A stretch of DNA of 64,000 nucleotides, taken from positions 54,530,430 to 54,594,429 of the forward strand of contig NC_090399.1 of the NCBI RefSeq assembly GCF_036365525.1. The letters are read 5' to 3'. The stretch is from Heterodontus francisci (taxonomy: Eukaryota). The position numbers and the translations under genes are program-made. The notes under the pieces are model-generated. The model was not told the DNA's origin. It worked only from the letters and a program-made list of their open reading frames with translations, and ran no database searches. This document shows positions 9,001 through 58,244 of the stretch, in pieces (the stretch's first letter is position 1; every line of letters begins with the position of its first letter).

Positions 9001-12000
9001 GGGGGAGGGTCAGTGTCCAGGGGAGAGGGATGGGGAGAGGGGTTGGGGAGAGGGGCAGTGTCCCGGGGAGAGGGGTTGGGGGGAGGGTCAGTGTCCTGGG
9101 GAGAGGGGTTGGGGGGAAGGTCAGTGTCCAGGGGAGAGGGGTTGGGGAGAGGGGTTGGGGAGAGGGGCAGTGTCCCAGGGAGAGGGGTTTGGAGGAGGAT
9201 CAGTGTCCCGGGGAGAATGGTTGGGGAGAGGGTCAGTATCCCGGGGAGAAGGTTTGGGGGGAAGGATCAGTGTCTCGGGGAGAGGGGTTGGGGAGAGGGT
9301 CAGTGTTCCCAGGGAGAGGGGTTGGGGGGAGGGTCAGTGTCCCGGGGAGAGGGGTTGGGGGGAGGGTCAGTGTCCCGGGGAGAGGGGTTGGGGGGAGGGT
9401 CAGTGTCCCGGGGAGAGGCGTTGGGGGGCAGGTCAGTGTCCCGGTGAGAGGAGTTGGGGAGGGGGTCACTGTCCTGGGGAGAGAGTCAGTGACCCGGGGA
9501 GGGGGTCAGTGTCCTGGGGAGAGGGGTGGGGAGAGGGTCAGTGTCCTGCGGAGAGGGTCAGTGTCCCGGGGAGAGGGTCAGTGTCCCGGGGAGAGGGTCA
9601 GTGTCCTGGGGAGATGGGTTGGGGGGAGGGTCAGTGTCCCGGGGAGAGGGGTTGGGGAGAGTATGTGTCCCGGAGAGAGGAGTGTGAGTGTCCCAGGGAG
9701 TGGGGTCAGTGGCCCCAGGAGAGGGGTTGGGGGGAGGGTCAGTGTCCCGGGAAGAGGGTCAGTGTCCCGGGAAGAGGGGTTGGGGGGAGAGGGGCAGCAT
9801 CCCGGGGAGAGGGATTGGGGGGAGGGTCAGTGTCCAGGGGAGAGGGATGGGGAGAGGGGTTGGGGAGAGGGGCAGTGTCCCGGGGAGAGGGGTTGGGGGG
9901 AGGGTCAGTGTCCTGGGGAGAGGGGTTGGGGGGAAGGTCAGTGTCCAGGGGAGAGGGGTTGGGGAGAGGGGTTGGGGAGAGGGGCAGTGTCCCAGGGAGA
10001 GGGGTTTGGAGGAGGATCAGTGTCCCGGGGAGAATGGTTGGGGAGAGGGTCAGTATCCCGGGGAGAAGGTTTGGGGGGAAGGATCAGTGTCTCGGGGAGA
10101 GGGGTTGGGGAGAGGGTCAGTGTTCCCAGGGAGAGGGGTTGGGGGGAGGGTCAGTGTCCCGGGGAGAGGGGTTGGGGGGAGGGTCAGTGTCCCGGGGAGA
10201 GTGGTTGGGGGGAGGGTCAGTGTCCCGGGGAGAGGCGTTGGGGGGCAGGTCAGTGTCCCGGGGAGAGGGGTTGGGGAGAGGGTCAGTGTCCCGGGGAGAG
10301 GGGTTGGGGAGAGTCGGTGTCCCGGAGAAAGGGGTTGGGGAGAGGGTCAGTGTCCCGGAGAAAGGGGTTGGGGAGAGGGTCAGTGTCCCGGGAGAGGGGT
10401 TGGGGAGAGGGGTTAGGGAGAGGGTTTGGGGAGAGGGTTTGGGGAGAGGGTCAGTGCCCCGAGGAGTGGGGTTGGGGGGAGGGTCAGTGTCCTGGGGAGA
10501 GGGGTTGGGGAGAGGTTCAGTGTCCCGGGAAGAGGGTCAGTATCCCGGGGAGAGGGGTTGGGAGAGGGTCAGTGTCCCGGGGAGAGGGGTTGGGGAGAGG
10601 TTCAGTGTCGCGGGGAGAGGAGTAGGGGGGAGGGTCAGTGTCCCGGGGAGAGGGTCAGTGTCCCGGGGAGAGGGTCAGTATCCAGCAGAGAGGGTCAGTG
10701 TCCTGGGGAGAAGGTCAGTGTCCCGGGAAGAGGGTCAGTGTCCCGGGAAGAGGGTCAGTGTCCCGGGAAGAGGGCTTGGGGGGAGAGGGGCAGCATCCCG
10801 GGGAGAGGGGTTGGGGGGAGGGTCAGTGTCCAGGGGAGAGGGGTAGGGGAGAGGGGTTGGGGAGAGGGGCAGTGTCCCGGGGAGAGGGGTTGGGGGGAGG
10901 GTCAGTGTCCCGGGGAGAAGGGATGGGGAGAGGGTCAGTATCCTGGGGAGAGCTGTTGGGGGGAGGGTCAGTGTCCCGGTGAGCGGGGTTGGGGAGAGGT
11001 TCAGTGTCCCGGGGAGAGGGGTTGGGGGGAGGGTCAGTGTCCTGGGGAGAGGGGTTGGGGGGAAGGTCAGTGTCCAGCGGAGAGGGGTTGGGGAGAGGGG
11101 TTGGGGAGAGGGGCAGTGTCCTGGGGTGAGGGGTTGGGGGGAAGGAACAGTGTCTCGGGGAGAGGGGTTGGGGAGAGGCTCAGTGGTCCCAGGGAGAGGG
11201 GTTGGGGGGAGGGTCAGTGTCCTGGGGAGATGGGTTGGGGAGAGTGTCAGTATCCCGGGGAGAGGGGTTGGGGGGAGGGTCAGTGTCCTGGGGTGAGGGG
11301 TTGGGGGGAAGGATCAGTGTCTCGGGGAGAGGGGTTGGGGAGAGGGTCAGTGTTCCCAAGGAGAGGGGTTGGGGGGCAGGTCAGTGTCCCGGGGAGAGGG
11401 GTTGGGGAGAGGGTCAGTGTCCCGGGGAGAGGGGTTGGGGGGCAGGTCAGTGTCCCGGGGAGAGGGGTTGGGGGGCAGGTCAGTGTCCCGGGGAGAGGGG
11501 TTGGGGGGCAGGTCAGTGTCCCGGGGAGAGGGGTTGGGGAGAGTATGTGTCCCGGAGAGAGGAGTGTGAGTGTCCCAGGGAGTGGGGTCAGTGGCCCCAG
11601 GAGAGGGGTGGGGGGGGGGTGGGGTCAGTGTCCCGGGAAGAGGGTCAGTGTCCCGGGAAGAGGGGTTGGGGGGAGAGGGGCAGCATCCCGGGGAGAGGGG
11701 TTGGGGGGAGGGTCAGTGTCCAGGGGAGAGGGATGGGGTGAGGGGTTGGGGAGAGGGGCAGTGTCTCGGGGAGAGGGGTTGGGGGTAGGGTCAGTGTCCT
11801 GGGGAGAGGGGTTGGGGGGAAGGTCAGTGTCCAGGGGAGAGGGGTTGGGGAGAGGGGTTGGGGAGAGGGGCAGTGTCCCGGGGAGAAGGGTTGGGGAGAG
11901 GGTCAGTATCCCGTGGAGAAGGGTTGGGGGGAAGGATCAGTGTCTCGGGGAGAGGGGTTGTGGAGAGGGTCAGTGTTCCCAGGGAGAGGGGTTGGGGGGA

Positions 12001-15000
12001 GGGTCAGTGTCCCTGGGAGAGGGGTTGGGGGGAGGGTCAGTGTCCCGGGGAGAGGGGTTGGGGAGAGTCGGTGTCCCGGAGAAAGGGGTTGGGGAGAGGG
12101 TCAGTGTCCCGGGAGAGGGGTTGGGGAGAGGGGTTAGGGAGAGGGTTTGGGGAGAGGGTGAGTGCCCCGGGGAGTGGGGTTGGGGGGAGGGTCAGTGTCC
12201 TGGGGAGAGGGGTTGGGGAGAGGTTCAGTGTCCCGGGAAGAGGGGTTGGGGAGAGGTTCAGTGTCGCGGGGAGAGGAGTAGGGGGGAGGGTCAGTGTCCC
12301 GGGGAGAGGGTCAGTGTCCCCGGGAGAGGGTCAGTATCCAGCAGAGAGGGTCAGTGAACTGGGGAGAAGGTCAGTGTCCCGGGAAGAGGGTCAGTGTCCC
12401 GGGAAGAGGGGTTGGGGGGAGAGGGGCAGCATCCCGGGGAGAGGGGCTGGGGGGAAGGTCAGTGTCCAGGGGAGAGGGGTTGGGGAGAGGGGCAGTGTCC
12501 CGGGGAGAGGGGTTGGGGGGAGGGTCGGTGTCCCGGGGAGAAGGGTTGGGGAGAGGGTCAGTATCCCGGGGAGAGCTGTTGGGGGGAAGGTCAGTGTCCT
12601 GGTGAGAGGGGTTGGGGAGAGGTTCAGTGTCCCGGGGAGAGGGGTTGGGGGGAGGGTCAGTGTCCTGGGGAGAGGGGTTGGGGGGAAGGTCAGTGTCCAG
12701 GGGAGAGGGGTTGGGGTGATGGGTTGGGGAGAGGGGCAGTGTCCTGGGGTGAGGGGTTGGGGGGAAGGATCAGTGTCTCGGGGTGAGGGGTTGGGGAGAG
12801 GGTCAGTGTTCCCAGGGAGAGGGGTTGGGGGGAGGGTCAGTGTCCCGGGGAGAGGGGTTGGGGGGCAGGTCAGTGTCCCGGGGAGAGGGGTTGGGGAGAG
12901 GGTCAGTGTCCCGCAGAGAGGGTCAGTGTCCCGGGGAGAGGTTCAGTGTCCCGGGGAGTGGGGTCAGTGGCCCCAGGAGAGGGGTTGGGGGGAGGGTCAG
13001 TGTCCCGGGGGAGGGACAGTGTCCTGGGGAGATGGGTTGGGGGGAGGGTCAGTGTCCCGGGGAGAGCGGTTGGGGAGAGTCTGTGTCCCTGAGAGAGGGG
13101 CTGGGGGGAAAGTCTGTGTCCCGGGGAGAGGGGCTGGGGAGAGGGGTTGGAGAGAGGGTCAGTGTCCCGGGGAGAGGGTCAGTGTCCCGGGAAGAGGGTC
13201 AGTGTCCCGGGAAGAGGGTCAGTGTCCCGGGAAGAGGGGTTGGGGGAAGGGTCAGTGTCTCGGGGAGAGGGGTTGGGGAGAGGGTCAGTGTCCCGGGGAG
13301 AGGGGTTGGGGAGAGGGTCAGTGTCCCGGGGAGAGGGTTTGGGGAGAGGGTCAGTGTCCCGGTGAGAGGAGTTGGGGAGGGGGTCACTGTCCTGGGGAGA
13401 GAGTCAGTGACCCGGGGAGGGGGTCAGTGTCCTGGGGAGAGGGGTGTGGAGAGGGTCAGTGTCCTGCGGAGAGGGTCAGTGTCCCGGGGAGAGGGTCAGT
13501 GTCCCGGGGAGAGGGTCAGTGTCCTGGGGAGATGGGTTGGGGGGAGGGTCAGTGTCCCGGGGAGAGGGGTTGGGGAGAGTATGTGTCCCGGAGAGAGGAG
13601 TGTGAGTGTCCCAGGGAGTGGGGTCAGTGGCCCCAGGAGAGGGGTTGGGGGGAGGGTCAGTGTCCCGGGAAGAGGGTCAGTGTCCCGGGAAGAGGGGTTG
13701 GGGGGAGAGGGGCAGCATCCCGGGGAGAGGGGTTGGGGGGAGGGTCAGTGTCCAGGGGAGAGGGATGGGGAGAGGGGTTGGGGAGAGGGGCAGTGTCCCG
13801 GGGAGAGGGGTTGGGGGGAGGGTCAGTGTCCTGGGGAGAGGGGTTTGGGGGAAGGTCAGTGTCCAGGGGAGAGGGGTTGGGGAGAGGGGTTGGGGAGAGG
13901 GGTTGGGGAGAGGGGTTGGGGAGAGGGGCAGTGTCCCAGGGAGAGGGGTTTGGGGGAGGATCAGTGTCCCGGGGAGAATGGTTGGGGAGAGGGTCAGTAT
14001 CCCGGGGAGAAAGTTTGGGGGGAAGGATCAGTGTCCCGGGGAGAGGGGTTGGGGAGAGGGTCAGTGTTCCCAGGGCGAGGGGTTGGGGGGAGGGTCAGTG
14101 TCCCGGGGAGAGGCGTTGGGGGGCAGGTCAGTGTCCCGGGGAGAGGGGTTGGGGAGAGGGTCAGTGTCCCGGGGAGAGGGGTTGGGGAGAGTCGGTGTCC
14201 CGGAGAAAGGGGTTGGGGAGAGGGTCAGTGTCCCGGGAGAGGGGTTGGGGAGAGGGGTTAGGGAGAGGGTTTGGGGAGAGGGTTTGGGGAGAGGGTCAGT
14301 GCCCCGAGGAGTGGGGTTGGGGGGAGGGTCAGTGTCCTGGGGAGAGTGGTTGGGGAGAGGTTCAGTGTCCCGGGAAGAGGGTCAGTGTCCTGGGGAGAAG
14401 GGTTGGGGAGAGTGTCAGTATCCCGGGGAGAGGGGTTGGGGGGAGGGTCAGTGTCCCGGGGAGAAGGGATGGGGAGAGGTTCAGTGTCCCGGGGAGAGGG
14501 GTTGGGGGGAGGGTCAGTGTCCTGGGGAGAGGGGTTGGGGGGAAGGTCAGTGTCCAGCGTAGAGGGGTTGGGGAGAGGGGTTGGGGAGAGGAGCAGTGTC
14601 CTGGGGTGAGGGGTTGGGGGGAAGGATCAGTGTCTCGGGGAGAGGGGTTGGGGAGAGGGTCAGTGTTCCCAGGGCGAGGGGTTGGGGGGAGGGTCAGTGT
14701 CCCGGGGAGAGGCGTTGGGGGGCAGGTCAGTGTCCCGGGGAGAGGGGTTGGGGAGAGGGTCAGTGTCCCGGGGAGAGGGGTTGGGGAGAGTCGGTGTCCC
14801 GGAGAAAGGGGTTGGGGAGAGGGTCAGTGTCCCGGGAGAGGGGTTGGGGAGAGGGGTTAGGGAGAGGGTTTGGGGAGAGGGTTTGGGGAGAGGGTCAGTG
14901 CCCCGAGGAGTGGGGTTGGGGGGAGGGTCAGTGTCCTGGGGAGAGTGGTTGGGGAGAGGTTCAGTGTCCCGGAAGAGGGTCAGTGTCCTGGGGAGAAGGG

Positions 15001-18000
15001 TTGGGGAGAGTGTCAGTATCCCGGGGAGAGGGGTTGGGGGGAGGGTCAGTGTCCCGGGGAGAAGGGATGGGGAGAGGTTCAGTGTCCCGGGGAGAGGGGT
15101 TGGGGGGGAGGGTCAGTGTCCTGGGGAGAGGGGTTGGGGGGAAGGTCAGTGTCCAGCGTAGAGGGGTTGGGGAGAGGGGTTGGGGAGAGGAGCAGTGTCC
15201 TGGGGTGAGGGGTTGGGGGGAAGGATCAGTGTCTCGGGGAGAGGGGTTGGGGAGAGGGTCAGTGTTCCCAGGGAGACGGGTTGGGGGGAGGGTCAGTGGC
15301 CCGGGGAGAGGGGTTGGGGGGCAGGTCAGTGTCCCGGGGAGAGGGGTTTGGGGGAGGGTCAGTGTCCTGGGGAGAAGGGTTGGGGAGAGTGTCAGTATCC
15401 CGGGGAGAGGGGTTGGGGGGAGGGTCAGTGTCCTGGGGTGAGGGGTTGGGGGGAAGGATCAGTGTCTCGGGGAGAGGGGTTGGGGAGAGGGTCAGTGTTC
15501 CCAAGGAGAGGGGTTGGGGGGCAGGTCAGTGTCCCGGGGAGAGGGGTTGGGGAGAGGGTCAGTGTCCCGGGGAGAGGGGTTGGGGGGCAGGTCAGTGTCC
15601 CGGGGAGAGGGGTTGGGGGGCAGGTCAGTGTCCCGGGGAGAGGGGTTGGGGAGAGGGTCAGTGTCCCGGGGAGAGGGGTTGGGGGGCAGGTCAGTGTCCC
15701 GGGGAGAGGGGTTGGGGGGCAGGTCAGTGTCCCGGGGAGAGGGGTTGGGGAGAGGGTCAGTGTCCCTGGGAGAGGGGTTGGGGAGAGTCGGTGTCCCGGA
15801 GAAAGGGGTTGGGGAGAGGGTCAGTGTCCCGGGAGAGGGGTTGGGGAGAGGGGTTAGGGAGAGGGTTTGGGGAGAGGGTCAGTGCCCCGGGGAGTGGGGT
15901 TGGGGGGAGGGTCAGTGTCCTGGGGAGAGGGTCAGTGTCCCGGTGAGAGAGGTTGGGGGAAGGGTCAGTGTGCCGGGGAGAGGGTTTGGGGAGATGGTCA
16001 GTGTCCCGGGATAGGGGTTGGGGAGAGGGTCAGTATCCCGGGAGAGGGGTTGGGGGGAGGGTCAGTGTCCCTGGGAGAGGGGTCGGGGGAAGGTTCAGTG
16101 TCCCGGGGAGAGGGTCAGTGTCCCGGGGAGATGGGTTGGCGAGAGGGATTGGGGAGAGGGTCAGTGTCCCGGGGAGAGGGGTTGGGGGGGTGGGTCAGTG
16201 TCCCGGGGAGAGGGGTTGGGGAGAGGGTCAGCGTCCCGGGGACAGGGGTTGGGGAGAGTCTGGGTCCCGGAGAGAGGGGTTTGGGGGAGGGTCAGTGTCC
16301 TGGGGAGAAGGGTTGGGGAGAGTGTCAGTGTCCCGGGGGGAGGGGTTGGGGGGAGGGTCAGTGTCCTGGGGTGAGGGGTTGGGGGGAAGGATCAGTGTCC
16401 CGGGGAGAGGGGTTGGGGGGCAGGTCAGTATCCCGGGGAGAGGGGTTGGGGAGAGAGTCAGTGTCCCGGGGAGAGGGGTTGGGGAGAGGGTCAGTGTCCT
16501 GGGGAGAGGGGTTGGGGAGAGGGGTTAGGGAGAGGGTTTTGTGAGAGGGTTTGGGGAGAGGGTCAGTGCCCCGGGGAGTGGGGTTCGGGGGAGGGTCAGT
16601 GTCCTGGGGAGAGGGGTTGGGGAGAGGGTCAGTGTGCCGGGGAGAGGGGTTGGGGAGAGGGTCAGTGTGCCGGGGAGAGGGGCTGGGGAGATGGTCAGTG
16701 TCCCGGGGAGAGGGGTTGGGGGCAGGTCAGTGTCCCGGGGAGAGGGGTAGGGGAGAGGGTCAGTGTCCCGCAGAGAGGGTCAGTGTCCCGGGGAGTGGGG
16801 TCAGTGGCCCCAGGAGAGGGGTTGGGGGGAGGGTCAGTGTCCCGGGGAGAGCGGTTGGGGAGAGTCTGTGTCCCTGAGAGAGGGGCTGGGGGGAAAGTCT
16901 GTGTCCCGGGGAGAGGGGCTGGGGAGAGGGGTTGGAGAGAGGGTCAGTGTCCCGGGGAGAGGGTCAGTGTCCCAGGGAGAGGGGTTGGGGGAAGGGTCAG
17001 TGTCTCGTGGAGAGGAGTTGGGGAGGGGGTCACTGTCCTGGGGAGAGGGTCAGTGACCCAGGGAGAGGGGCTGGGGGGAAAGTCTGTGTCCCGGGGAGAG
17101 GGGATGGGGAGAGGGGTTGGAGAGAGGGTCAGTGTCCCGGGGAGAGGGTCAGTGTCCCAGGGAGAGGGGTTGGGGGAAGGGTCAGTGTCTCGGGGAGAGG
17201 GGTTGGGGAGAGTATGTGTCCCGGAGAGAGGAGTGTGAGTGTCCCAGGGAGTGGGGTCAGTGGCCCCAGGAGAGGGGTTGGGGGGAGGGTCAGTGTCCCG
17301 GGAAGAGGGTCAGTGTCCCGGGAAGAGGGGTTGGGGGGAGAGGGGCAGCATCCCGGGGAGAGGGGTTGGGGGGAGGGTCAGTGTCCAGGGGAGAGGGATG
17401 GGGAGAGGGGTTGGGGAGAGGGGCAGTGTCCCGGGGAGAGGGGTTGGGGGGAGGGTCAGTGTCCTGGGGAGAGGGGTTTGGGGGAAGGTCAGTGTCCAGG
17501 GGAGAGGGGTTGGGGAGAGGGGTTGGGGAGAGGGGTTGGGGAGAGGGGTTGGGGAGAGGGGTTGGGGAGAGGGGCAGTGTCCCAGGGAGAGGGGTTTGGG
17601 GGAGGATCAGTGTCCCGGGGAGAATGGTTGGGGAGAGGGTCAGTATCCCGGGGAGAAAGTTTGGGGGGAAGGATCAGTGTCTCGGGGAGAGGGGTTGGGG
17701 AGAGGGTCAGTGTTCCCAGGGCGAGGGGTTGGGGGGAGGGTCAGTGTCCCGGGGAGAGGCGTTGGGGGGCAGGTCAGTGTCCCGGGGAGAGGGGTTGGGG
17801 AGAGGGTCAGTGTCCCGGGGAGAGGGGTTGGGGAGAGTCGGTGTCCCGGAGAAAGGGGTTGGGGAGAGGGTCAGTGTCCCGGGAGAGGGGTTGGGGAGAG
17901 GGGTTAGGGAGAGGGTTTGGGGAGAGGGTTTGGGGAGAGGGTCAGTGCCCCGAGGAGTGGGGTTGGGGGGAGGGTCAGTGTCCTGGGGAGAGGGGTTGGG

Positions 18001-21000
18001 GAGAGGTTCAGTGTCCCGGGAAGAGGGTCAGTGTCCTGGGGAGAAGGGTTGGGGAGAGTGTCAGTATCCCGGGGAGAGGGGTTGTGGGGAGGGTCAGTGT
18101 CCCGGGGAGAAGGGATGGGGAGAGGGTCAGTATCCCGGGGAGAGCTGTTGGGGGGAGGGTCAGTGTCCCGGTGAGCGGGGTTGGGGAGAGGTTCAGTGTC
18201 CCGGGGAGAGGGGTTGGGGGGAGGGTCAGTGTCCTGGGGAGAGGGGTTGGGGGGAAGGTCAGTGTCCAGCGTAGAGGGGTTGGGGAGAGGGGTTGGGGAG
18301 AGGAGCAGTGTCCTGGGGTGAGGGGTTGGGGGGAAGGATCAGTGTCTCGGGGAGAGGGGTTGGGGAGAGGGTCAGTGTTCCCAGGGAGACGGGTTGGGGG
18401 GAGGGTCAGTGTCCCGGGGAGAGGGGTTGGGGGGCAGGTCAGTGTCCCGGGGAGAGGGGTTTGGGGGAGGGTCAGTGTCCTGGGGAGAAGGGTTGGGGAG
18501 AGTGTCAGTATCCCGGGGAGAGGGGTTGGGGGGAGGGTCAGTGTCCTGGGGTGAGGGGTTGGGGGGAAGGATCAGTGTCTCGGGGAGAGGGGTTGGGGAG
18601 AGGGTCAGTGTTCCCAAGGAGAGGGGTTGGGGGGCAGGTCAGTGTCCCGGGGAGAGGGGTTGGGGAGAGGGTCAGTGTCCCGGGGAGAGGGGTTGGGGGG
18701 CAGGTCAGTGTCCCGGGGAGAGGGGTTGGGGGGCAGGTCAGTGTCCCGGGGAGAGGGGTTGGGGAGAGGGTCAGTGTCCCGGGGAGAGGGGTTGGGGGGC
18801 AGGTCAGTGTCCCGGGGAAAGGGGTTGGGGGGCAGGTCAGTGTCCCGGGGAGAGGGGTTGGGGAGAGGGTCAGTGTCCCTGGGAGAGGGGTTGGGGAGAG
18901 TCGGTGTCCCGGAGAAAGGGGTTGGGGAGAGGGTCAGTGTCCCGGGAGAGGGGTTGGGGAGAGGGGTTAGGGAGAGGGTTTGGGGAGAGGGTCAGTGCCC
19001 CGGGGAGTGGGGTTGGGGGGAGGGTCAGTGTCCTGGGGAGAGGGTCAGTGTCCCGGTGAGAGAGGTTGGGGGAAGGGTCAGTGTGCCGGGGAGAGGGTTT
19101 GGGGAGATGGTCAGTGTCCCGGGATAGGGGTTGGGGAGAGGGTCAGTATCCCGGGAGAGGGGTTGGGGGGAGGGTCAGTGTCCCTGGGAGAGGGGTCGGG
19201 GGAAGGTTCAGTGTCCCGGGGAGAGGGTCAGTGTCCCGGGGAGATGGGTTGGCGAGAGGGATTGGGGAGAGGGTCAGTGTCCCGGGGAGAGGGGTTGGGG
19301 GGGTGGGTCAGTGTCCCGGGGAGAGGGGTTGGGGAGAGGGTCAGCGTCCCGGGGACAGGGGTTGGGGAGAGTCTGGGTCCCGGAGAGAGGGGTTTGGGGG
19401 AGGGTCAGTGTCCTGGGGAGAAGGGTTGGGGAGAGTGTCAGTGTCCCGGGGGGAGGGGTTGGGGGGAGGGTCAGTGTCCTGGGGTGAGGGGTTGGGGGGA
19501 AGGATCAGTGTCCCGGGGAGAGGGGTTGGGGGGCAGGTCAGTATCCCGGGGAGAGGGGTTGGGGAGAGGGTCAGTGTCCCGGGGAGAGGGGTTGGGGAGA
19601 GGGTCAGTGTCCTGGGGAGAGGGGTTGGGGAGAGGGGTTAGGGAGAGGGTTTGGGGAGAGGGTTTTGTGAGAGGGTTTGGGGAGAGGGTCAGTGCCCCGG
19701 GGAGTGGGGTTCGGGGGAGGGTCAGTGTCCTGGGGAGAGGGGTTGGGGAGAGGGTCAGTGTGCCGGGGAGAGGGGTTGGGGAGAGGGTCAGTGTGCCGGG
19801 GAGAGGGGCTGGGGAGATGGTCAGTGTCCCGGGGAGAGGGGTTGGGGGCAGGTCAGTGTCCCGGGGAGAGGGGTAGGGGAGAGGGTCAGTGTCCCGCAGA
19901 GAGGGTCAGTGTCCCGGGGAGTGGGGTCAGTGGCCCCAGGAGAGGGGTTGGGGGGAGGGTCAGTGTCCCGGGGAGAGCGGTTGGGGAGAGTCTGTGTCCC
20001 TGAGAGAGGGGCTGGGGGGAAAGTCTGTGTCCCGGGGAGAGGGGCTGGGGAGAGGGGTTGGAGAGAGGGTCAGTGTCCCGGGGAGAGGGTCAGTGTCCCA
20101 GGGAGAGGGGTTGGGGGAAGGGTCAGTGTCTCGTGGAGAGGAGTTGGGGAGGGGGTCACTGTCCTGGGGAGAGGGTCAGTGACCCAGGGAGAGGGGCTGG
20201 GGGGAAAGTCTGTGTCCCGGGGAGAGGGGATGGGGAGAGGGGTTGGAGAGAGGGTCAGTGTCCCGGGGAGAGGGTCAGTGTCCCAGGGAGAGGGGTTGGG
20301 GGAAGGGTCAGTGTCTCGGGGAGAGGGGTTGGGGAGAGGGTCAGTGTCCCGGGGAGAGGGTTTGGGGAGAGGGTCAGTGTCCCGGGGAGAGGGGTTGGGG
20401 AGAGGGTCAGTGTCCCGGGGAGAGGAGTTGGGGAGGGGGTCACTGTCCTGGGGAGAGAGTCAGTGACCCGGGGAGGGGGTCAGTGTCCTGGGGAGAGGGG
20501 TGGGGAGAGGGTCAGTGTCCCGGGGAGAGGGTCAGTGTCCCGGGAAGAGGGTCAGTGTCCTGGGGAGATGGGTTGCGGGGAGGGTCAGTGTCCCGGGGAG
20601 AGGGGTTGGGGAGAGTATGTGTCCCGGAGAGAGGAGTGTGAGTGTCCCAGGGAGTGGGGTCAGTGGCCCCAGGAGAGGGGTTGGGGGGAGGGTCAGTGTC
20701 CCGGGAACAGGGTCAGTGTCCCAGGAAGAGGGGTTGGGGGGAGAGGGGCAGCATCCCGGGGAGAGGGGTTGGGGGGAGGGTCAGTGTCCAGGGGAGAGGG
20801 ATGGGGAGAGGGGTTGGGGAGAGGGGCAGTGTCCCGGGGAGAGGGGTTGGGGGGAGGGTCAGTGTCCTGGGGAGAGGGGTTGGGGGGAAGGTCAGTGTCC
20901 AGGGGAGAGGGGTTGGGGAGAGGGGTTGGGGAGAGGGGCAGTGTCCCAGGGAGAGGGGTTTGGGGGAGGATCAGTGTCCCGGGGAGATGGGTTGGGGAGA

Positions 21001-23379
21001 GGGTCAGTATCCCGGGGAGAAGGGTTGGGGGGAAGGGTCAGTGTCTCGGGGAGAGGGGTTGGGGAGAGGGTCAGTGTCCTGGGGTGAGGGGTTGGGGGGA
21101 AGGATCAGTGTCCCGGGGAGAGGGGTTGGGGGGCAGGTCAGTATCCCGGGGAGAGGGGTTGGGGAGAGGGTCAGTGTCCCGGGGAGAGGGGTTGGGGTGA
21201 GGGTCAGTGTCCTGGGGAGAGGGGTTGGGGAGAGGGGTTAGGGAGAGGGTTTGGGGAGAGGGTTTTGTGAGAGGGTTTGGGGAGAGGGTCAGTGCCCCGG
21301 GGAGTGGGGTTCGGGGGAGGGTCAGTGTCCTGGGGAGAGGGGTTGGGGAGAGGGTCAGTGTGCCGGGGAGAGGGGTTGGGGAGAGGGTCAGTGTGCCGGG
21401 GAGAGGGGCTGGGGAGATGGTCAGTGTCCCGGGGAGAGGGGTTGGGGGCAGGTCAGTGTCCCGGGGAGAGGGGTAGGGGAGAGGGTCAGTGTCCCGCAGA
21501 GAGGGTCAGTGTCCCGGGGAGTGGGGTCAGTGGCCCCAGGAGAGGGGTTGGGGGGAGGGTCAGTGTCCCGGGGAGAGCGGTTGGGGAGAGTCTGTGTCCC
21601 TGAGAGAGGGGCTGGGGGGAAAGTCTGTGTCCCGGGGAGAGGGGCTGGGGAGAGGGGTTGGAGAGAGGGTCAGTGTCCCGGGGAGAGGGTCAGTGTCCCA
21701 GGGAGAGGGGTTGGGGGAAGGGTCAGTGTCTCGTGGAGAGGAGTTGGGGAGGGGGTCACTGTCCTGGGGAGAGGGTCTGTGTCCCGGGGAGAGGGGATGG
21801 GGAGAGGGGTTGGAGAGAGGGTCAGTGTCCCGGGGAGAGGGTCAGTGTCCCAGGGAGAGGGGTTGGGGGAAGGGTCAGTGTCTCGGGGAGAGGGGTTGGG
21901 GAGAGGGTCAGTGTCCCGGGGAGAGGGTTTGGGGAGAGGGTCAGTGTCCCGGGGAGAGGGGTTGGGGAGAGGGTCAGTGTCCCGGGGAGAGGAGTTGGGG
22001 AGGGGGTCACTGTCCTGGGGAGAGAGTCAGTGACCCGGGGAGGGGGTCAGTGTCCTGGGGAGAGGGGTGGGGAGAGGGTCAGTGTCCCGGGGAGAGGGTC
22101 AGTGTCCCGGGAAGAGGGTCAGTGTCCTGGGGAGATGGGTTGCGGGGAGGGTCAGTGTCCCGGGGAGAGGGGTTGGGGAGAGTATGTGTCCCGGAGAGAG
22201 GAGTGTGAGTGTCCCAGGGAGTGGGGTCAGTGGCCCCAGGAGAGGGGTTGGGGGGAGGGTCAGTGTCCCGGGAACAGGGTCAGTGTCCCAGGAGGAGGGG
22301 TTGGGGGGAGAGGGGCAGCATCCCGGGGAGAGGGGTTGGGGGGAGGGTCAGTGTCCAGGGGAGAGGGATGGGGAGAGGGGTTGGGGAGAGGGGCAGTGTC
22401 CCGGGGAGAGGGGTTGGGGGGAGGGTCAGTGTCCTGGGGAGAGGGGTTGGGGGGAAGGTCAGTGTCCAGGGGAGAGGGGTTGGGGAGAGGGGTTGGGGAG
22501 AGGGGCAGTGTCCCAGGGAGAGGGGTTTGGGGGAGGATCAGTGTCCCGGGGAGATGGGTTGGGGAGAGGGTCAGTATCCCGGGGAGAAGGGTTGGGGGGA
22601 AGGGTCAGTGTCTCGGGAGAGGGGTTGGGGAGAGGGTCAGTGTTCCCAGGGAGAGGGGTTGGGGGGAGGGTCAGTGTCCCGGGGAGAGAGGGTTGGGGGG
22701 ACGGTCAGTGTCCCGGGGAGAGGGGTTGGGGGGCAGGTCAGTGTCCCGGGGAGAGGGGTTGGGGAGAGGGTCAGTGTCCCGGGGAGAGGGGTTGGGGAGA
22801 GTCGGTGTCCCGGGGAGAGGGGTTGGGGAGAGGGTCAGTGTCCCGGGAGAGGGGTTGGGGAGAGGGGTTAGGGAGAGGGTTTGGGGAGAGGGTTTGGGGA
22901 GAGGGTCAGTGCCCCGGGGAGTGGGGTTGGGGGGAGGGTCAGTGTCCTGGGGAGAGGGGTTGGGGAGAGGTTCAGTGTCCCAGGAAGAGGGTCAGTATCC
23001 CGGGGAGAGGGGTTGGGAGAGGGTCAGTGTCCCGGGGAGATTGGTTGGGGAGAGGTTCAGTGTCGCGGGGAGAGGTGTAGGGGGGAGGGTCAGTGTCCCG
23101 GGGAGAGGGTCAGTGTCCCGGGGAGAGGGTCAGTATCCAGCAGAGAGGGTCAGTGTCCTGGGGAGAAGGTCAGTGTCCCAGGAAGAGGGTCAGTGTCCCG
23201 GGAAGAGGGGTTGGGGGGAGAGGGGCAGCATCCCGGGGAGAGGGGTTGGGGGGAGGGTCAGTGTCCAGGGGAGAGGGGTAGGGGAGAGGGGTTGGGGAGA
23301 GGGGCAGTGTGCCGGGGAGAGGGGCTGGGGAGATGGTCAGTGTCCCGGGGAGAGGGGTTGGGGAGAGGGTCAGTATCCC
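1..23379 (+). repeat. Giant G-rich minisatellite array 1, built from a 20-bp module GGGGAGAGGGTCAGTGTCCC and a 13-bp module GGGGAGAGGGGTT (usual 33-bp unit), with higher-order duplications; open at the window's left edge
   Basis: Read directly over more than 23 kb. Extreme G skew on +. Rare marker variants recur at kb-scale periods. Confidence 0.98.
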
Positions 23380-23475
23380 GGGACACTGACCCTCTCCCCA
23401 ACCCCTCTCCCCGGGACACTGACCCTCTCCCCAACCCCTCTCCCCAGGACACTGACCCTCCCCCCAACCCTCTCC
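23380..23475 (-). repeat. About 3 inverted units of array 1 forming a fold-back end
   Basis: GGGACACTGACCCTCTCCCCAACCCCTCTCCCC is the reverse complement of the unit. Symmetry centre is TCCC|GGGA at 23379/23380. Confidence 0.95.
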
Positions 23476-23679: not shown

Positions 23680-23918
23680 ACTGAGAGGTGACATACGGCT
23701 GTGATCTGTGGGATGATGGGGGAAACTAGTGGATACTTCCAATATGGCTGGGATAGGAAGGATTTCATGACCTTCGACAAGGAGAACCTGGTGTGGATCA
23801 CCCCCGAACCCTGGGGAGTAATCTTGACGAATAAGGAAATGAACCTGTACCTATGGAAAGAAGACTGGGATGGAACCTGCATCGAGCTGCTGAAAAAATA
23901 CCTGAAGGCTGAGACCTG
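23680..23918 (+). pseudogene. MHC class I-like heavy chain, alpha2 exon (disrupted)
   Basis: VTYGCDLWDDG (23688-23720), then a +1 shift in a G5 run into ETSGYFQYGWDRKDFMTFDKENLVWITPEPWGVILTNK..WKEDWDGTCIELLKKYLK. Both alpha2 cysteines are present. Ends AGACCTG|GTGAGT (R-P plus phase-1 donor, out of frame with the body). No clean acceptor is visible. Confidence 0.9.
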
Positions 23919-26900
23919 GTGAGTGAGTGGGGACTGAGAGTCAGTGAAGGGGGCTAAGAGACGGTGAGGGGGGACTGAGTGTCAGTGAGGGGGGACTGAG
24001 TGTCAGTGAGAGGGAACTGAGAGTCAGTGAGGGAGAGGGGGACTGAGAGTCAGTGTGAGGGGGACTGAGAGTCAGTGTGGGGGGGACTGAGAGATGGTGA
24101 GGGGGGACTGAGAGACGGTGAGTGAGGGGGGGACTGAGAGACGGTGAGGGGGGACTGAGAGATGGTGAGTGAGGGGGGACTGAGAGTCAGTTAGGGGGGA
24201 CTGCGAGTCAGTGAGTGAGAGCGGGACTGAGAGTCAGTGAATGAGAGGGGGACTGAGAGTCAGTGAGGGGGGGACTGAGAGACGGTGAGGGGGGGACTGA
24301 GAGATGGTGAGTGAGGGGGTACAGAGGGTCAGTGAGGGGGGACTGAGAGACGGTGAGGGGGGACTGAGAGTCAGTGAGGGGGGACTGAGAGACGGTGAGG
24401 GGGGACTGAGAGACGGTGAGGGGGGACTGAGAGACGGTGAGGGGGGACTGAGAGACGGTGAGGGGGGACAGAGATGGTGAGGGGGGACAGAGATGGTGAG
24501 GGGGGACTGAGAGACGGTGAGGGGGGACTGAGAGACGGTGAGGGGGGACTGAGAGACGGTGAGTGAGTGGGGACTGAGAGTCAGTGAGGGGGACTGAGAG
24601 ACGGTGAAGGGGGACTGAGAGTCGGTGAAGGGGGACTGAGAGTCGGTGAGGGGGGACTGAGAGTCGGTGAGGGGGGACTGAGAGTCGGTGAGGGGGGACT
24701 GAGAGTCGGTGAGGGGGGACTGAGAGTCGGTGAGGGGGGACTGATAGACGGTGAGGGGGGACTGATAGACGGTGAGGGGGGACTGAGAGTCGGTGAGGGG
24801 GGACTGAGAGTCAGTGAGGGGGGACTGAGAGTCAGTGAGGGGGGACTGAGAGTCAGTGAGGGGGGACTGAGAGTCAGTGAGGGGGGACTGAGTCAGTGAG
24901 TGAGAGCGGGACTGAGAGTCAGTGAATGAGAGGGGGACTGAGAGATGGTGAGTGAGGGGGGACTGAGAGTCAGTGAGTGAGAGGGGGACTGAGAGTCAGT
25001 GAGGGGGGGACTGAGAGACGGTGAGGGGCGACTGAGAGTCAGTTAGGAGGGACTGAGAGTCAGTGAGTGAGAGGGGGACTGCGAGTCAGTTAGTGAGAGG
25101 GGGACTGAGAGTCAGTGAGTGAGAGCGGGACTGAGAGTCAGTGAATGAGAGGGGGCTGAGAGTCAGTGAGTGAGAGCGGGACTGCGAGTCAGTTAGTGAG
25201 AGGGGGACTGAGAGTCAGTGAGTGAGAGGGGGCTGAGAGTCAGTGAATGAGAGGGCGACTGAGAGTCAGTGAATGACAGGGGGCTGAGAGTCAGTGAGTG
25301 AGAGCGGGACTGCGAGTCAGTGAATGAGAGGGGGCTGAGAGACGGTGAGGGGGGACTGAGAGTCGGTGAGTGAGAGGGGGACTGAGAGTCAGTGAATGAG
25401 AGGGGGCTGAGAGTCAGTGAGTGAGAGGGGGCTGAGAGTCAGTGAGTGAGAGGGGGACTGAGAATCAGTGAATGAGAGGGGGCTGAGAGACGGTGAGGGG
25501 GGACTGAGAGTCGGTGAGTGAGAGGGGGACTGAGAGTCAGTGAATGAGAGGGGGCTGAGAGACGGTGAGGGGGGACTGAGAGTCGGTGAGTGAGAGGGGG
25601 ACTGAGAGTCAGTGAATGAGAGGGGGCTGAGAGACGGTGAGGGGGGACTGAGAGTCGGTGAGTGAGGGGGGACTGAGAAACGGTGAGTGAGAGGGGACTG
25701 AGAGACGGTGAATGAGAGGGGGCTGAGAGACGGTGAGTGAGGGGGGACTGAGAGACGGTGAGTGAGGGGGGACTGAGAGACGGTGAGGGGGGACTGAGAG
25801 TCGGTGAGTGAGAGCGGGACTGAGAGTTGGTGAGTGAGGGAGGACTGAGAGTCAGTGAGTGAGAGCGGGACTGAGAATCAGTGAGTGAGGGGGTTCTGAT
25901 AGTTGGTGAGTGAGGGAGGACTGAGAGTCAGTGAGTGAGAGGCGGACTGAGAGTCAGTGAGTGAGAGGCGGACTGAGAGTCAGTGAGTGAGAGGCGGACT
26001 GAGAGTCAGTGAGTGAGAGGCGGACTGAGAGTCAGTGAGTGAGAGGCGGACTGAGAGTCAGTGAGTGAGAGGCGGACTGAGAGTCAGTGAGTGAGAGGCG
26101 GACTGAGAGTCAGTGAGTGAGAGGGGGACTGAGAGTCAGTGAGTGAGAGGGGGACTGAGAGTCAGTGAGTGAGAGGGGGACTGAGAATCAGTGAGTGAGA
26201 GGGGGACTGAGAGTCAGTGAGTGAGAGGGGGACTGAGAATCAGTGAGTGAGAGGGGGACTGAGAGTCAGTGAGTGAGAGGGGGACTGAGAGTCAGTGAGT
26301 GAGAGGGGGACTGAGAGTCAGTGAGTGAGAGGGGGACTGAGAATCAGTGAGTGAGAGGGGGACTGAGAGTCAGTGAGTGAGAGGCGGACTGAGAGTCAGT
26401 GAGTGAGAGCGGGACTGAGAGTCAGTGAGTGAGGGGGTTCTGATAGTTGGTGAGTGAGGGGGGGACTGAGAGTCGGTGAGTGAGAGCGGGACTGAGAGTC
26501 AGTGAGTGAGGGGGTTCTGATAGTTGGTGAGTGAGGGGGGGACTGAGAGTCGGTGAGTGAGAGCGGGACTGAGAGTCAGTGAGTGAGGGGGTTCTGATAG
26601 TTGGTGAGTGAGGGAGGACTGAGAGTCAGTGAGTGAGAGGCGGACTGAGAATCAGTGAGTGAGGGGGTTCTGATAGTTGGTGAGTGAGGGAGGACTGAGA
26701 GTCAGTGAGCGAGGGAGGATTGAGAGTCAGTGAGTGAGGGGGTTCTGAGAGTTGGTGAGTGAGGGGGGACTGAGAGTCAGTGAGTGAGAGGGGGACTGAG
26801 AGTCGGTGAGTGAGGGGGTTCTGATAGTTGGTGAGTGAGGGAGGACTGAGAGTCAGTGAGTGAGGGAGGACTGAGAGTCAGTGAGTGAGGGAGGACTGAG

Positions 26901-26960
26901 AGTCAGTGAGTGAGGGAGGACTGAGAGTCAGTGAGTGAAGGGAATCCACTGAGAGTAAAT
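23919..26960 (+). repeat. G-rich minisatellite array 2 (about 22-28 bp unit GGGGGACTGAGAGTCAGTGAGTGAGA) filling the alpha2-alpha3 intron
   Basis: Read directly; begins at the exon's splice donor. Confidence 0.97.
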
Positions 26961-27110
26961 GGTGGGCGATTGATGTCCAGTAGTCTAATCCACAGTTTAA
27001 AGGAATATTTACCATTCCCTGGGGTCAGGGTTTCTAATGTCCAGTTTAAAGGGATATTTACCATTCCCTGTCTCTCTCACTGCCTTGCCTGTGATCTGTT
27101 TTACTCTCAG

Positions 27111-27336
27111 TTGCTCCTCAAGTGTTTCTTTCCGTGGACAAATGTCAGCTGCTAAACCGGCCAAACTCTCCTGCCTCATCACAGGATTTTACCCTCGTAA
27201 TATCAAAGTTATCCTCCTGAGAAATGGCAAGTCAATTGAGAAAAAAATATACCACTGGCATCCTGCCCAACCAAAATGGCACCTACCAGTTTTGGAGATG
27301 GGTTCAGATCGAGTCTGAGGATGGAGTCACCTATTC
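27111..27336 (+). pseudogene. MHC class I-like alpha3 (Ig C1) exon, 5' part
   Basis: Acceptor TTTTACTCTCAG| with phase 1 gives (V)APQVFLS. A frameshift leads to AKPAKLSCLITGFYPRNIKVILLRNGKSIEK, and a second shift in an A7 run to YTTGILPNQNGTYQFWRWVQIESEDGVTYS. The exon is then cut by a CR1. Confidence 0.9.
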
Positions 27337-29161
27337 ACAAGAACATAAGAACACAACAAGACAAGAAATGGGAACAGGAGTAGACCATATGGCCCATCGA
27401 GCCTGCTCTGCCATTCAATACCATTATGGCTGATCTTGGGCTTCAATTCCAATTTCCTGCCCGCTCCCTATATCCCTTGATTCCCTGCGAGTCCAAAAAT
27501 CTATCTATCCCAGCCTTAAATGTATCCAATATTGGAGCATTTGCAATCCTCTGGGGTGGAGAATTCCAAAGATTCACAACCCTTTGAGTGAAGTAATTTC
27601 TCCTCATCTCAGTCCTGAATGATTGGCTCCTTATCCTGACACTGTGTCCCCATGTTCTAGATTCCCCGAACAGTGGGAACAATCTCTCAGCTTCTATCAT
27701 ATCAAGCTCTTTCAGAATCTTGTATGTCTCAATTAGATCACCTCTCACTCTTCTAAACTCCAGAGAATATAGGCCCAATTTACACAGCCTCTCGTCATCG
27801 GACAACACCCTCATCCCAGGGACCAACTCGGCAAATCTTCGCTGCACTGCCTCCAGTGCAAGTATATCCTTTCTTAAATGTGGAGACCAAAACTGCACAC
27901 AGTATTCCAGGTGCAGTCTCACCAAAGCCCTGTACAGTTTCAATAAGACTTCCTTATTCCTGTATTCCAATCAACTTGCAATAAAGGATAACATGCAATT
28001 TGCCTTCCTAACAGCCTGCGACACCTGCTCTCGGTGCGTTCCTTGTACAAGTACCCCCAAGCCTCGCTGAACATCAACACTTACCAGTTTCATACCTTTT
28101 AAAAAATATTCTGCTTTTCTATTTTTATGACCAAAGTGAACAACTTCACACTTCCCTACATTATACTCCATCTGCCATCTTGTTGCCCACTTGCTTAACC
28201 TGTTCTATATCTCTTTGCAGCCTCTCTACATCCTCTCTGCAGCTTACCTTTCCATCGAGCTTTGTATCATCAGCAAACTTAGATATATTACTCTCTGTCT
28301 CTTCATCCCAGTCATTAATATTGAGTGTAAATAGCTGAGGCCCCAGCACTGATCCTTGTGGCACCCCAATATTCTCTGCCAGACAACTTGAAAATGCCCC
28401 ATTCATGCTCACTCTCTGTTTCCTATCTGTTAACCAACCCTCTATCCACGCTAATATATTACCCCAAACACCATGAGCCATTATCTTGCTTATTAATCTT
28501 TTATGTGGCACCTTATCGAATGCCTTTTGAAAATCCAAGTATACAACCTCTACTGGTCACCCTTTATCTACCCTACTAGTTTCATCCTCAAAAAACTCTA
28601 ATAAAATTGTCAAACAGGATCTCCCTTTAGTAAAACCTTGCTGACTTGTTCTAATCATGCTATGCTTTTCCAAGTGTAATGTTAAGACTTCTTTAACAAT
28701 AGTTTCCAGCATCTTCCCAATGATTGATGTTCGGCTAATTGGCCTGCAGTTGCCTGTTTTCTCTCTACCTCCATCTTGCAAAGCAGTGTAACATTTGCCA
28801 ACTTACAATCTGATGGGACCATTCCTGAATCTAAGGCATTCTGGAAAATCATAGCCATCCACTATCTCTGCAGCTATCTCTTTTAGAACCCTAAGATGCA
28901 GGCCATCTGGTCCTGGGGACTTGTCAGATTTTAGTCCCTCAAGTTTCTCCAATACTTCTGCTTGGCTGTTATCAATATCCTTAATTTCCGCATGCTTTTA
29001 GCCCCCAGGTTACTGCCTATTTCTGGTATGGAACTGTGTCTTCTACTGTGAAGACAGACACAAAATATTTGTTGAATGCCTCTGCAATTACCTCATTTCC
29101 CATGATGATTTCTCCTGTCTCTGCCTCTAAGGGGCCAACATCTACTTTCGCTACTCTCTTC
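27337..29161 (-). mobile_element. 5'-truncated CR1 LINE inserted antisense in the alpha3 exon
   Basis: Minus-strand ORFs [48 protein letters not shown]. Simple-repeat tail at 27337-27365. TTC shared at both junctions. Confidence 0.93.
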
Positions 29162-29211
29162 CTGTCAGTATGAGCAGAGCAGAAACGGAGGAGTGGAGAG
29201 CCGAGACTGGG
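29162..29211 (+). pseudogene. MHC class I-like alpha3 exon, 3' remainder
   Basis: Removing the CR1 restores TAT TCC TGT CAG TAT GAG CAG AGC.. = YSCQYEQSRNGGVESRDW, followed by G|ATAAGA (donor GT mutated to AT). Confidence 0.82.
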
Positions 29212-29351
29212 ATAAGAGGAACAGTGACTGCAAGGGTACTGTCTGTCAGTGATGTTTAAAGATGGTTATAATTACCTCTACTCATTCTGCCTTCCAAAAT
29301 CAATCACTTCACACTTCTCTGCATGAAATTGCATCTGCTGTGTGTCGGTCC

Positions 29352-41260: not shown

Positions 41261-42190
41261 ATGGCAGGAGAGCTCAGCCCTGTGGCAAGCTCCTCCTGCG
41301 CTCTGTGGGAAATCAGGGACACTGGAAGTGTCCCTGGTGACCATGTGTGCAGGAAGTGTGTCCAGCTGCAGCTACTAGCTGACCACATTGGAGCTGCGGG
41401 TGGATTCACTGTGGAGCATCCGTGATGCTGAGGATGTCGTGGATAGCATGTTTAGCGAGGTGGTCACACCGCAGGTAATGGCTGCAGAGGCATAAAAGAG
41501 ATGGGTGACCACCAGGATGAGTAGTAGACGCAAGCAGGTAATGCAAGGTTTCCCTGTGGCCATCCCTCTCTCAAACAGATATACCGCTTTGGATACTGTT
41601 GGGGGGGATGGCCTCCCAGGGGAAAGCAGCAACAGCCAAGTTGGTGGCACCACGGAGGGCTCTGCTGCACAGGAGGGAGTGAAAAATAGTGGGAGAGCCA
41701 TACTGATAGGGGATTCAATCGTAAAGGGAACAGACAGGCGTTTCTGTGGCCACAAACATGACTCCAGGATGGTATGTTGCCTCCCTGGTGCTAGGGTCAA
41801 GGATGTCTCAGAGCGGCTGCAGGACATTCTGAAGGGACAGGATGAACAATCAGAGGTCGTGGTACACATTAGTACCAACGACATAGGTAGAAAGAGGGAT
41901 GGGGTCCTGCAACAAGAATTTAGGGAGCTAGGTAGCAGTTTGAAAAGCAGCACCTCAAAGGTTGTAATCTCTGGATTACTCCCAGTGCCATGTGCTAGTG
42001 AGTATAGGAATAGGAGGATAGAGCAGATGAATGCGTGGCTGAGGAGGTGGCGCAAGAGGGAGGGCTTTAGTTTCCTGGATCACTGGGTCTGTTTCTGGCC
42101 ATGATGGGACCTGTACAAGTTGGACGGGTTGCACCTGAACCAGAACAGGATAAACATCCTTGCTGGGAGGTTTGTTAGTGCTGTTGGTGG
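41261..42190 (+). pseudogene. CR1 ORF1p (Zn-finger/coiled coil plus SGNH esterase), disrupted
   Basis: LIGDSIVKG, CLPGARVKDV, VVHISTNDIG, VISGLLPVP. Contains stops and frameshifts. Confidence 0.85.
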
Positions 42191-50534: not shown

Positions 50535-50581
50535 TCAAGCCAAGAATGCCAAGTTCAAAGATGATTCTCCTCTTTCAGCAG
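50535..50581 (-). CDS. Terminal cytoplasmic-tail exon of MHC class I-like gene
   Basis: TCTTTTCTTTTCACAG| phase 1 gives xAERGESSLNLAFLA*. Resembles the ..ESSSNSSATA* end recalled for shark class I chains. Lies downstream of the - strand TM exon. Confidence 0.65.
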
Positions 50582-58133: not shown

Positions 58134-58244
58134 CTCCTCTCTTCCACACAACAGAACAAACGACATGAATAACCAGAGCGATTGCAGCAAAAAGCCCAAC
58201 AATCAATCCGAGTTTTGATCTTGGAGTCGTTCGGACCATCTTGT
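58134..58244 (-). CDS. Connecting-peptide/transmembrane exon of a type I membrane protein, most likely MHC class I-like
   Basis: CTCTTCATTG(C)12ACAG| 111 nt, phase 1-1, (D)KMVRTTPRSKLGLIVGLFAAIALVIHVVCSVVWKRG |GTAAGA. Hydrophobic span followed by a WKR stop-transfer. Confidence 0.85.

Follow-up and report, generated by a model that had tools for sequence, protein, structure and literature searches.

Does the class I-like sequence in this part of the Heterodontus francisci genome still form a gene able to encode a heavy chain, and with which shark class I lineage does it belong? The window (the whole 64,000-nucleotide stretch analysed, contig NC_090399.1 of assembly GCF_036365525.1) holds what is, with high confidence, a broken, intron-containing class I heavy-chain gene of a shark type here called long-alpha3, which has lost the capacity to encode a heavy chain; it is likely a spare duplicate that decayed without selection. 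The following features bear on the question.

1..23379, plus strand: G-rich minisatellite array of 20/33-bp units upstream of alpha2, with no alpha1 or leader exon inside
23380..23470, minus strand: short inverted copy of the array, folding back at CCCGGG, with 83 of 90 bases mirroring the left flank
23686..23918, plus strand: decayed class I alpha2 exon (profile, structure-match and lesion evidence)
23919..27110, plus strand: alpha2-alpha3 intron, largely G-rich minisatellite, with intact GT donor and AG acceptor, phase 1
27111..27336, plus strand: alpha3 (C1-set) exon, 5' part (C1-set profile, searches, contigs, lesion map)
27337..29161, minus strand: 5'-truncated LINE of CR1 type with a reverse transcriptase (RT) remnant (RVT_1, E 6.6e-15) and a short-repeat 3' tail, itself decayed
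29162..29211, plus strand: alpha3 exon, 3' part, beginning just before the second Ig cysteine (profile and pairwise match)
50535..50581, minus strand: decayed last cytoplasmic exon from a class I gene, with a good acceptor, a stop at the family position and an eroded Ser-Asn-Ser tail
58134..58244, minus strand: open, diverged transmembrane (TM) exon of 111 nt, long-alpha3 class I in type, with intact AG/GT, phase 1-1 (HMM evidence)

The alpha2 exon aligns to Pfam MHC_I at E 4.4e-5 and 23.6 bits, below the cut-off of 28.3 because it is a fragment, and its best solved-structure match is the nurse shark class I molecule 6LUP (E 1.1e-10). The elasmobranch alpha2 motif that the sequence-only reading had pointed to is present as FDK..VW.TP..WG, and the fold motifs and the cysteine pair are those common to nurse shark UAA and UBA; the Cys101-Cys164 pair is retained, with codons at 23700 and 23878. 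The lesions postulated for this exon are also present: the extra G near 23720 lies in a run of five at 23718-22 and creates a TAG stop at 23727, while the frameshift near 23910 corresponds to a 14-nt loss, which leaves 41 nt between Cys164 and the donor compared with 55 in all 12 relatives. No clean acceptor precedes the exon, as had been claimed; only a weak in-phase GAG at 23683-85 is available, and the first five codons are missing. A net 12-nt deletion in the alpha2 helix, overlooked in the sequence-only reading, shortens the distance between the cysteines to 178 nt from 189. Among the anchor residues listed for class Ia in PMC4364491 (T143, K146, W147, Y159, Y171), K146 and Y171 are retained in the alignments, and the other three are gone (T143 replaced by L, W147 lost, Y159 replaced by D), so that the classical UAA anchor set is incomplete; these changes may reflect decay rather than an ancestral state. 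A word-index search with the alpha2 piece gave no match among 22 candidates, and a full HMMER scan found 53. The terminal branch in the alpha2 tree measures 0.97 (median 0.18), and the domain is unplaced. The alpha2 HMM did not pick up a weak alpha2-like tblastn match at 62615-62785 (E 0.006), which was dropped.

From alpha2 the reading frame passes to alpha3 across an intron, the donor GT at 23919 and the acceptor AG ending at 27110 giving the in-phase (phase 1) splice that had been proposed. Removal of 1825 nt (27337-29161) rejoins the alpha3 pieces, as predicted, into a 276-nt exon of 92 codons, the length found in P0093. The middle part of alpha3 matches the C1-set profile above the cut-off of 21 bits (E 3.1e-7, 31.1 bits), so that with alpha2 the reconstruction aligns to both expected profiles, and 29163-29210 has a counterpart in P0093 (11 of 16 residues identical, pairwise E 4e-7); neither of the outcomes named in advance as refuting the reconstruction was observed. 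Both cysteines are present, and the exon borders are in phase 1. The two suspected frameshifts are a one-base loss at about 27140-44, leading to a TGA stop at 27218, and a one-base gain in a run of seven A at 27241-48; in related contigs, the base missing at 27144 is present in runs X1 and X17, and the extra base at 27248 is absent from X17. The alpha3 donor reads AT at 29212, as noted earlier, where related contigs of X1, X5 and X6 carry G, and intact paralogues in three runs without an RNA label have a GT donor. No RNA data set was listed as containing the locus, and X17, guessed to be an RNA run, bears paralogue letters in its listed contigs over alpha3; neither observation is evidence on expression. 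Contig depths of 5.6 and 47 are not taken as copy number.

The element that splits alpha3 does so directly before the second Ig cysteine, as claimed, breaking the Ser codon that precedes the Cys codon TGT at 29163; three letters (TTC) at its edges are assignable to either side. The element shows the features of the CR1 type: an RT-bearing ORF2, 5' truncation, a 3' tail of short repeats, a target duplication that is small or absent, and high copy number; the RT family is presumably CR1 rather than L2. Contig depth over the element is very high in four runs. The element has itself decayed, with two frame changes and at least two stops. It would have entered by target-primed reverse transcription, with 3-5 nt of matching target sequence probably serving to join its 5' end. 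An empty-site joint (27333>29159, skipping 1825 nt) occurs in intact paralogues of all four runs. The expectation of an empty site was thus borne out in paralogues or relatives, but not as an allele of this locus, since the contigs differ at many sites and represent paralogues or genes of other species. With at least eight lesions in the gene, the LINE was probably not the first disabling hit. The available text of PMC1513397 describes CR1-like LINEs with partial RT as abundant in shark genomes and reports such elements near shark MHC genes, in an intron of an LMP7 pseudogene and in the 3'UTR of UAA-NC1; in contrast to those, the Heterodontus element lies inside a coding exon.

The remaining exons of a heavy chain are not where they would be expected. 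On the plus strand between 29.2 and 64 kb, HMM searches recovered no TM or tail exon (best TM E 0.73); such exons, overlooked in the sequence-only reading, are found on the minus strand only. The TM exon scores 18.6 bits (E 6e-5; best reversed control 2.6 bits), its top blastp matches are long-alpha3 genes, and its terminal branch in the TM tree is 0.69 (median 0.22). The cytoplasmic exon, at 6.1 bits (E 0.7; best reversed control 1.3 bits), is weak alone and is backed by its acceptor, phase and order; the tail-motif tally (53/62) is crude and carries no weight. A scan for the middle cytoplasmic micro-exon gave no convincing match on either strand of the window. These exons, at 58.2 and 50.6 kb, may well be the 3' half of this same gene, flipped by an inversion, a reading to which we give about an even chance: they are of the same long-alpha3 type and lie in the order that an inversion would produce. 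A second class I gene, arranged tail to tail with its alpha exons to the right of the window, is also plausible, if somewhat short of even; a deletion would then have removed the 3' exons of the plus-strand gene. That arrangement would fit the intact splice sites of the TM exon and the result of self-BLAST and inverted-repeat scans, which showed only ordinary repeat copies and no inversion breakpoint in the window. Mixed orientation of class I genes also seems common, since the white shark MHC-Ib rows listed in the portion of the source available vary in strand (plus, minus, minus, plus, minus). Conversely, it requires a pair of long-alpha3 genes decayed to a similar degree as well as a deletion, and no minus-strand alpha3 occurs in the 5.7 kb up to the window end. 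Upstream, HMMs for alpha1 and leader found neither across the 64-kb window (best E 21 and 4.3), about 23 kb of satellite preceding alpha2; these exons lie beyond the window or are lost. The fold-back at 23380-23470 is a possible rearrangement junction.

Taken as a broken gene, the locus carries stops in the entry frames of both exons, four frameshifts, a dead alpha3 donor and a LINE between the Ig cysteines. The sequence-only reading was therefore right that it is a true pseudogene rather than a product of homopolymer errors, all the lesions it listed having been found and several being independent, and the kept introns make it an unprocessed one; class I identity and the LINE in alpha3 stand on the profiles, the 6LUP match and the contig joints. 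Every domain (alpha2, alpha3 and TM) has a long terminal branch, that of alpha3 being 0.37, whereas the two intact Heterodontus branches closest to it measure 0.17-0.18. A duplicate class I gene would have become spare and then accumulated lesions without selection, most likely as an ordinary casualty of gene-family turnover. Counted against this are the open TM exon, its intact splice sites and a shortening that is in frame only. An alternative history is that of a divergent nonclassical class I gene, with a shortened TM and alpha2 helix and an altered groove, which worked until recently and was killed by the LINE: the helix loss and the TM shortening both keep the frame, both alpha2 and both Ig cysteines persist, and the TM remains hydrophobic (best 19-residue mean 2.77, within the 2.58-3.29 of 11 relatives). 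We consider this history improbable, because the LINE is itself decayed, the frameshifts and dead donor exist besides it, and the short helix occurs in no relative among the 281 proteins fetched (minimum spacing 61 residues, 59 here); across 246 motif matches the spacing is always 61-67 residues, and it is 63 in 214 of them.

Sequence accuracy was judged from a public contig (X1) and a nearby array. The contig is identical over 27105-27390, with 0 differences and 0 gaps, a span that among the pieces listed covers both alpha3 frameshifts and the left LINE junction, so these are not errors of this assembly; X1 may derive from the assembly's own source sample and thus does not count as an independent individual. 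Local indel error appears low because the homopolymer-rich array at 55-57.6 kb is built of 81 units that all share one length. That the lesions are assembly errors in a gene intact except for a polymorphic insertion is accordingly highly improbable, and for alpha3 largely refuted: two of the four frameshifts do lie in homopolymer runs (G5, A7), and the contig check covers alpha3 up to the left LINE junction, leaving aside alpha2, the junction on the right and the AT donor, but it matches exactly where it applies, the 12- and 14-nt losses and the GT-to-AT change are not homopolymer-type errors, and the array is uniform.

Within shark class I, the alpha3 domain falls in the long-alpha3 clade (P0089-P0098, P0003/P0084 and P0147; 14 of 49 rows, support 100/99, bootstrap not fully settled), which also contains class I of dogfish and nurse shark 'UAA-2'-like genes. 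It resembles the genes of Squalus acanthias (Q8HWH7, P0092), Pristiophorus (P0089/P0093), Heptranchias (P0090/P0095) and Heterodontus (P0003/P0084/P0094) in alpha3 identity (57-66%), the 92 codons, the CQYEQ-type end and the TM exon type; unlike these genes, it is frameshifted and LINE-split, has lost anchors and has its 3' exons off-strand. No 1:1 orthologue was found among the shark class I genes compared. The genes called nurse shark 'UAA-2' are probably the elasmobranch 'MHC-Ia-like' genes of Verissimo et al. 2023 (PMC10751288, supplementary file 10); in the portion of that file available they share the alpha3 type by eye, and the UAA-2-like proteins P0096 and P0097 sit in the same alpha3 clade. 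The alpha2 domains do not group, however, the pseudogene having FQYGWD where UAA-2 has HQEGWD, which sets it apart from that lineage as far as the file shows. The same portion already annotates 'MHC-Ia (partial)' copies in catshark and white shark. Classical nurse shark UAA (PDB 6LUP) and UBA carry the short alpha3 type, and such genes, including UBA-like proteins, fall outside the clade. By-eye comparison with the partial material at hand, which included no UEA-labelled query, did not show alpha2 or alpha3 of UBA, UCA/UEA, UDA, UFA, UGA or UHA type.

Intact shark genes add a comparative result. The long and short alpha3-TM-tail modules are about 42-51% identical. Within a species, the alpha2 domains that accompany the two alpha3 types resemble one another (AU test, p=4e-6), a pairing based on gene models rather than full-length cDNAs. 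Tentatively, sharks might keep two ancient alpha3-TM-tail modules and, through recombination or conversion across the alpha2-alpha3 intron, swap groove exons from one to the other, the reverse of teleosts; the pseudogene would then be a hybrid relic that, like the dogfish gene, joined a UAA-type alpha2 to a long module, and that was afterwards disabled and had its 3' half inverted. A literature search returned nothing that treats this locus or describes a pair of alpha3 types in sharks; lineage papers of 2020 and 2021 (J Immunol) lay outside it, and absence from print is not established.

As another dead class I copy, the pseudogene itself matters little, although it is useful as a datable marker of shark MHC turnover and as a caution for annotation. 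The comparative alpha3 by-product could matter more. If modules have been swapped beneath similar grooves, lineages of shark class I that take their name from a single domain would be mosaics, and, from the known role of alpha3, the long and short types may differ in their contact with CD8 or beta2-microglobulin.

This MHC class I locus was shown to be incapable of making a class I heavy chain. The class I exons and the neighbouring elements are as follows.

Class I exons and known or possible mobile elements in the window
23686-23918, plus strand: alpha2 exon remnant, whose longest open piece matches MHC_I and 6LUP
27337-29161, minus strand: LINE with a reverse transcriptase remnant (RVT_1, E 6.6e-15)
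29272-30573, plus strand: open 433-codon frame 60 bp 3' of alpha3, with a weak GIY-YIG match (E 0.0012)
41496-42104, plus strand: GDSL/OSK esterase-like frame (E 7.6e-10)
50535-50581, minus strand: class I terminal exon (profile 6.1 bits versus 1.3 for the control); its acceptor is good and its stop falls where the family has it
58134-58244, minus strand: class I TM exon (profile 18.6 bits, reversed control 2.6), AG/GT intact, phase 1-1

The sequence-only reading had assigned alpha2 to elasmobranch class I, and the matches of the open piece bear this out: Pfam MHC_I is hit at E 4.4e-5, the nurse shark structure PDB 6LUP heads 48 structure matches (E 1.1e-10), and ray and shark class I proteins lead the 53 matching cluster representatives. 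All the alpha2 lesions it listed are present, namely a +1 G within a G5 run that creates a stop at 23727, a frameshift near the 3' end that corresponds to a 14-nt loss just 5' of the donor, and the absence of a clean acceptor at a 5' end whose first five codons are gone. An addition to that list is a net 12-nt loss in the alpha2 helix, which leaves a Cys-Cys distance of 178 nt versus the typical 189; this spacing is never below 61 residues in 246 motif matches from 281 fetched proteins. The available part of PMC4364491 lists five anchor residues for alpha2; of these, K146 and Y171 are kept and T143, W147 and Y159 are gone.

The alpha2-alpha3 intron consists of 3.2 kb of minisatellite with both GT and AG intact, and alpha3 starts at 27111, its middle giving a C1-set match that exceeds the curated cut-off. 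As proposed earlier, alpha3 is split just before the second Ig cysteine: the cut lies inside the preceding codon, and excising 27337-29161 leaves 276 nt, the normal 92 codons. The 16 residues 3' of the insert (29162-29211) have a counterpart in P0093, a fetched class I protein, at 69% identity. The frame is further broken by a -1 near 27140-44, a stop at 27218 and a +1 near 27241-48, and the donor at 29212 reads AT in place of GT; the frameshifts (near 27140 and 27245) and donor change noted previously are thus all recovered.

The insert, which we take to be a CR1, is 5'-truncated inside ORF2, carries a short-repeat tail at 27337 and is itself decayed, its frame changing twice and being interrupted by no fewer than two stops. 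At the insertion, three letters can be assigned to either side, and because a LINE copy at 40421-40458 carries the same letters at the junction point, this overlap may have arisen by microhomology at the junction instead of by target duplication. G-rich minisatellite fills the first 23.4 kb of the window, and the remainder is mostly repeats. The array ends at 23380-23470, just 5' of alpha2, in a 90-bp inverted self-copy (83/90, centre CCCGGG), possibly a template-switch or inversion junction. The large arrays at 1-23379 and 23935-26940 (by alpha2/alpha3) and 53990-57860 (by TM/tail) are G-rich on whichever strand encodes the adjacent exons, plus for the first two and minus for the third. The 433-codon frame is presumably, by its appearance, a younger Penelope-type element, and the GDSL/OSK frame is probably ORF1 of a longer LINE copy. 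An element of ~1 kb at about 61822-62790 seems to interrupt a LINE and by eye could be a solo LTR. The portion of PMC1513397 available describes CR1-like elements as common in sharks, also near MHC genes, and reports GC-rich simple repeats in the region of a class I gene of the nurse shark.

Contigs from four of 24 listed public sequencing runs (X1, X5, X6 and X17), aligned at 80% likeness, favour a true pseudogene over homopolymer errors, as first argued. One X1 contig equals the window over 27105-27390 with zero differences, taking in both alpha3 frameshifts and the left LINE junction, X1 possibly being the assembly's own sample; in a homopolymer-rich array at 55-57.6 kb used as an indel-error control, 81/81 units are 31 bp long. 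LINE depth is very high in all four runs. An empty insertion site exists as a joint skipping the 1825 bases, likewise in every run, but not as an allele of this locus: given their many differences from the window, the contigs are paralogues or other species' genes. In these relatives the base missing at 27144 is present (X1, X17), the extra base at 27248 is absent (X17) and 29212 is G (X1, X5, X6). Among the contig pieces listed for the four runs, none confirms alpha2, the right LINE junction or the AT donor.

When alpha3 is translated across its breaks, each marked X, it shows 57-66% identity to eleven shark proteins that carry a longer alpha3. Identity is 63% and 50% for two further proteins, both of which align only partly, and does not exceed 49% for the remaining rows shown. 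In a 49-row tree, whose bootstrap is not fully settled, it falls within a 14-row long-alpha3 clade (support 100/99) containing Squalus Q8HWH7 and Pristiophorus, Heptranchias, Heterodontus, Scyliorhinus, Chiloscyllium and Stegostoma genes, with 0/10 ray rows. By eye, alpha3 matches the nurse shark gene 'Gcirratum_UAA-2' in supplementary file 10 of PMC10751288, the available parts of which also refer to 'MHC-Ia-like' genes, unpublished, close to the classical gene, and annotate 'partial' class Ia copies. The locus is assigned neither to UAA-2 nor to the classical type, because its alpha2 does not carry the UAA-2 signature and could not be placed in the alpha2 tree, where its branch is long. Many isoforms of the UAA-2-like Heterodontus gene models P0171-P0184 skip the TM exon, and these could encode soluble class I forms.

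In intact shark class I proteins, the relationships shown by alpha2 and by alpha3 disagree. The Heptranchias pair P0090 and P0105 has 88% in common in alpha2 but 51% in alpha3, the corresponding figures for Heterodontus P0084 and P0099 are 85% and 42%, and long-alpha3 genes across different orders share 64-74% in alpha3, in alignments of ~90 columns whose rows are mostly predicted, possibly chimeric, gene models. In an AU test of 22 selected rows, from which the window's copy was left out, a single alpha2 clade of the nine long-alpha3 genes is rejected (p 3.8e-6); the group was set from alpha3 before the alpha2 tree, and the rows were picked afterwards. Convergent selection, groove conversion or exon swapping may underlie the discordance, and the data do not separate these. 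Teleost alpha3, in contrast, tends towards within-species homogenisation according to the accessible text of PMC4364491, the opposite of the shark pattern here. The accessible sections list UBA, UEA, UDA, UFA and UGA in PMC12562908 and hold nothing further on two alpha3 types in PMC6523485; the literature searched, with incomplete coverage of lineage papers, yielded no description of two shark alpha3 types.

Of the leader, alpha1, TM and tail exons, exon-specific profiles detected none on the window's plus strand, and a search of the window for the middle cytoplasmic exon found none. Both minus-strand exons are of the long-alpha3 type; the top matches of the TM exon are long-alpha3 genes, and its branch is long (0.69), like those of alpha2 and alpha3. 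A single inversion would account for both the plus-strand absence of 3' exons and the minus-strand exon order, and the chances are roughly even that the TM and tail exons are the locus's own 3' half, inverted; repeat scans of the window found no inversion breakpoint. A tail-to-tail second gene, combined with deletion of the plus-strand 3' exons, would explain absence and order likewise, and mixed gene orientations are seen in the white shark cluster; we rate this a little short of an even prospect.

Birth-and-death is the usual fate of MHC genes. The locus would have begun as a redundant duplicate within a multi-copy group (39 member sequences, isoforms included, make up the P0084 cluster from Heterodontus), and would then have lost constraint and collected indels, the LINE and perhaps an inversion. 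The original observation is confirmed and its interpretation supported: the locus is one more of a known sort, a dead class I copy.
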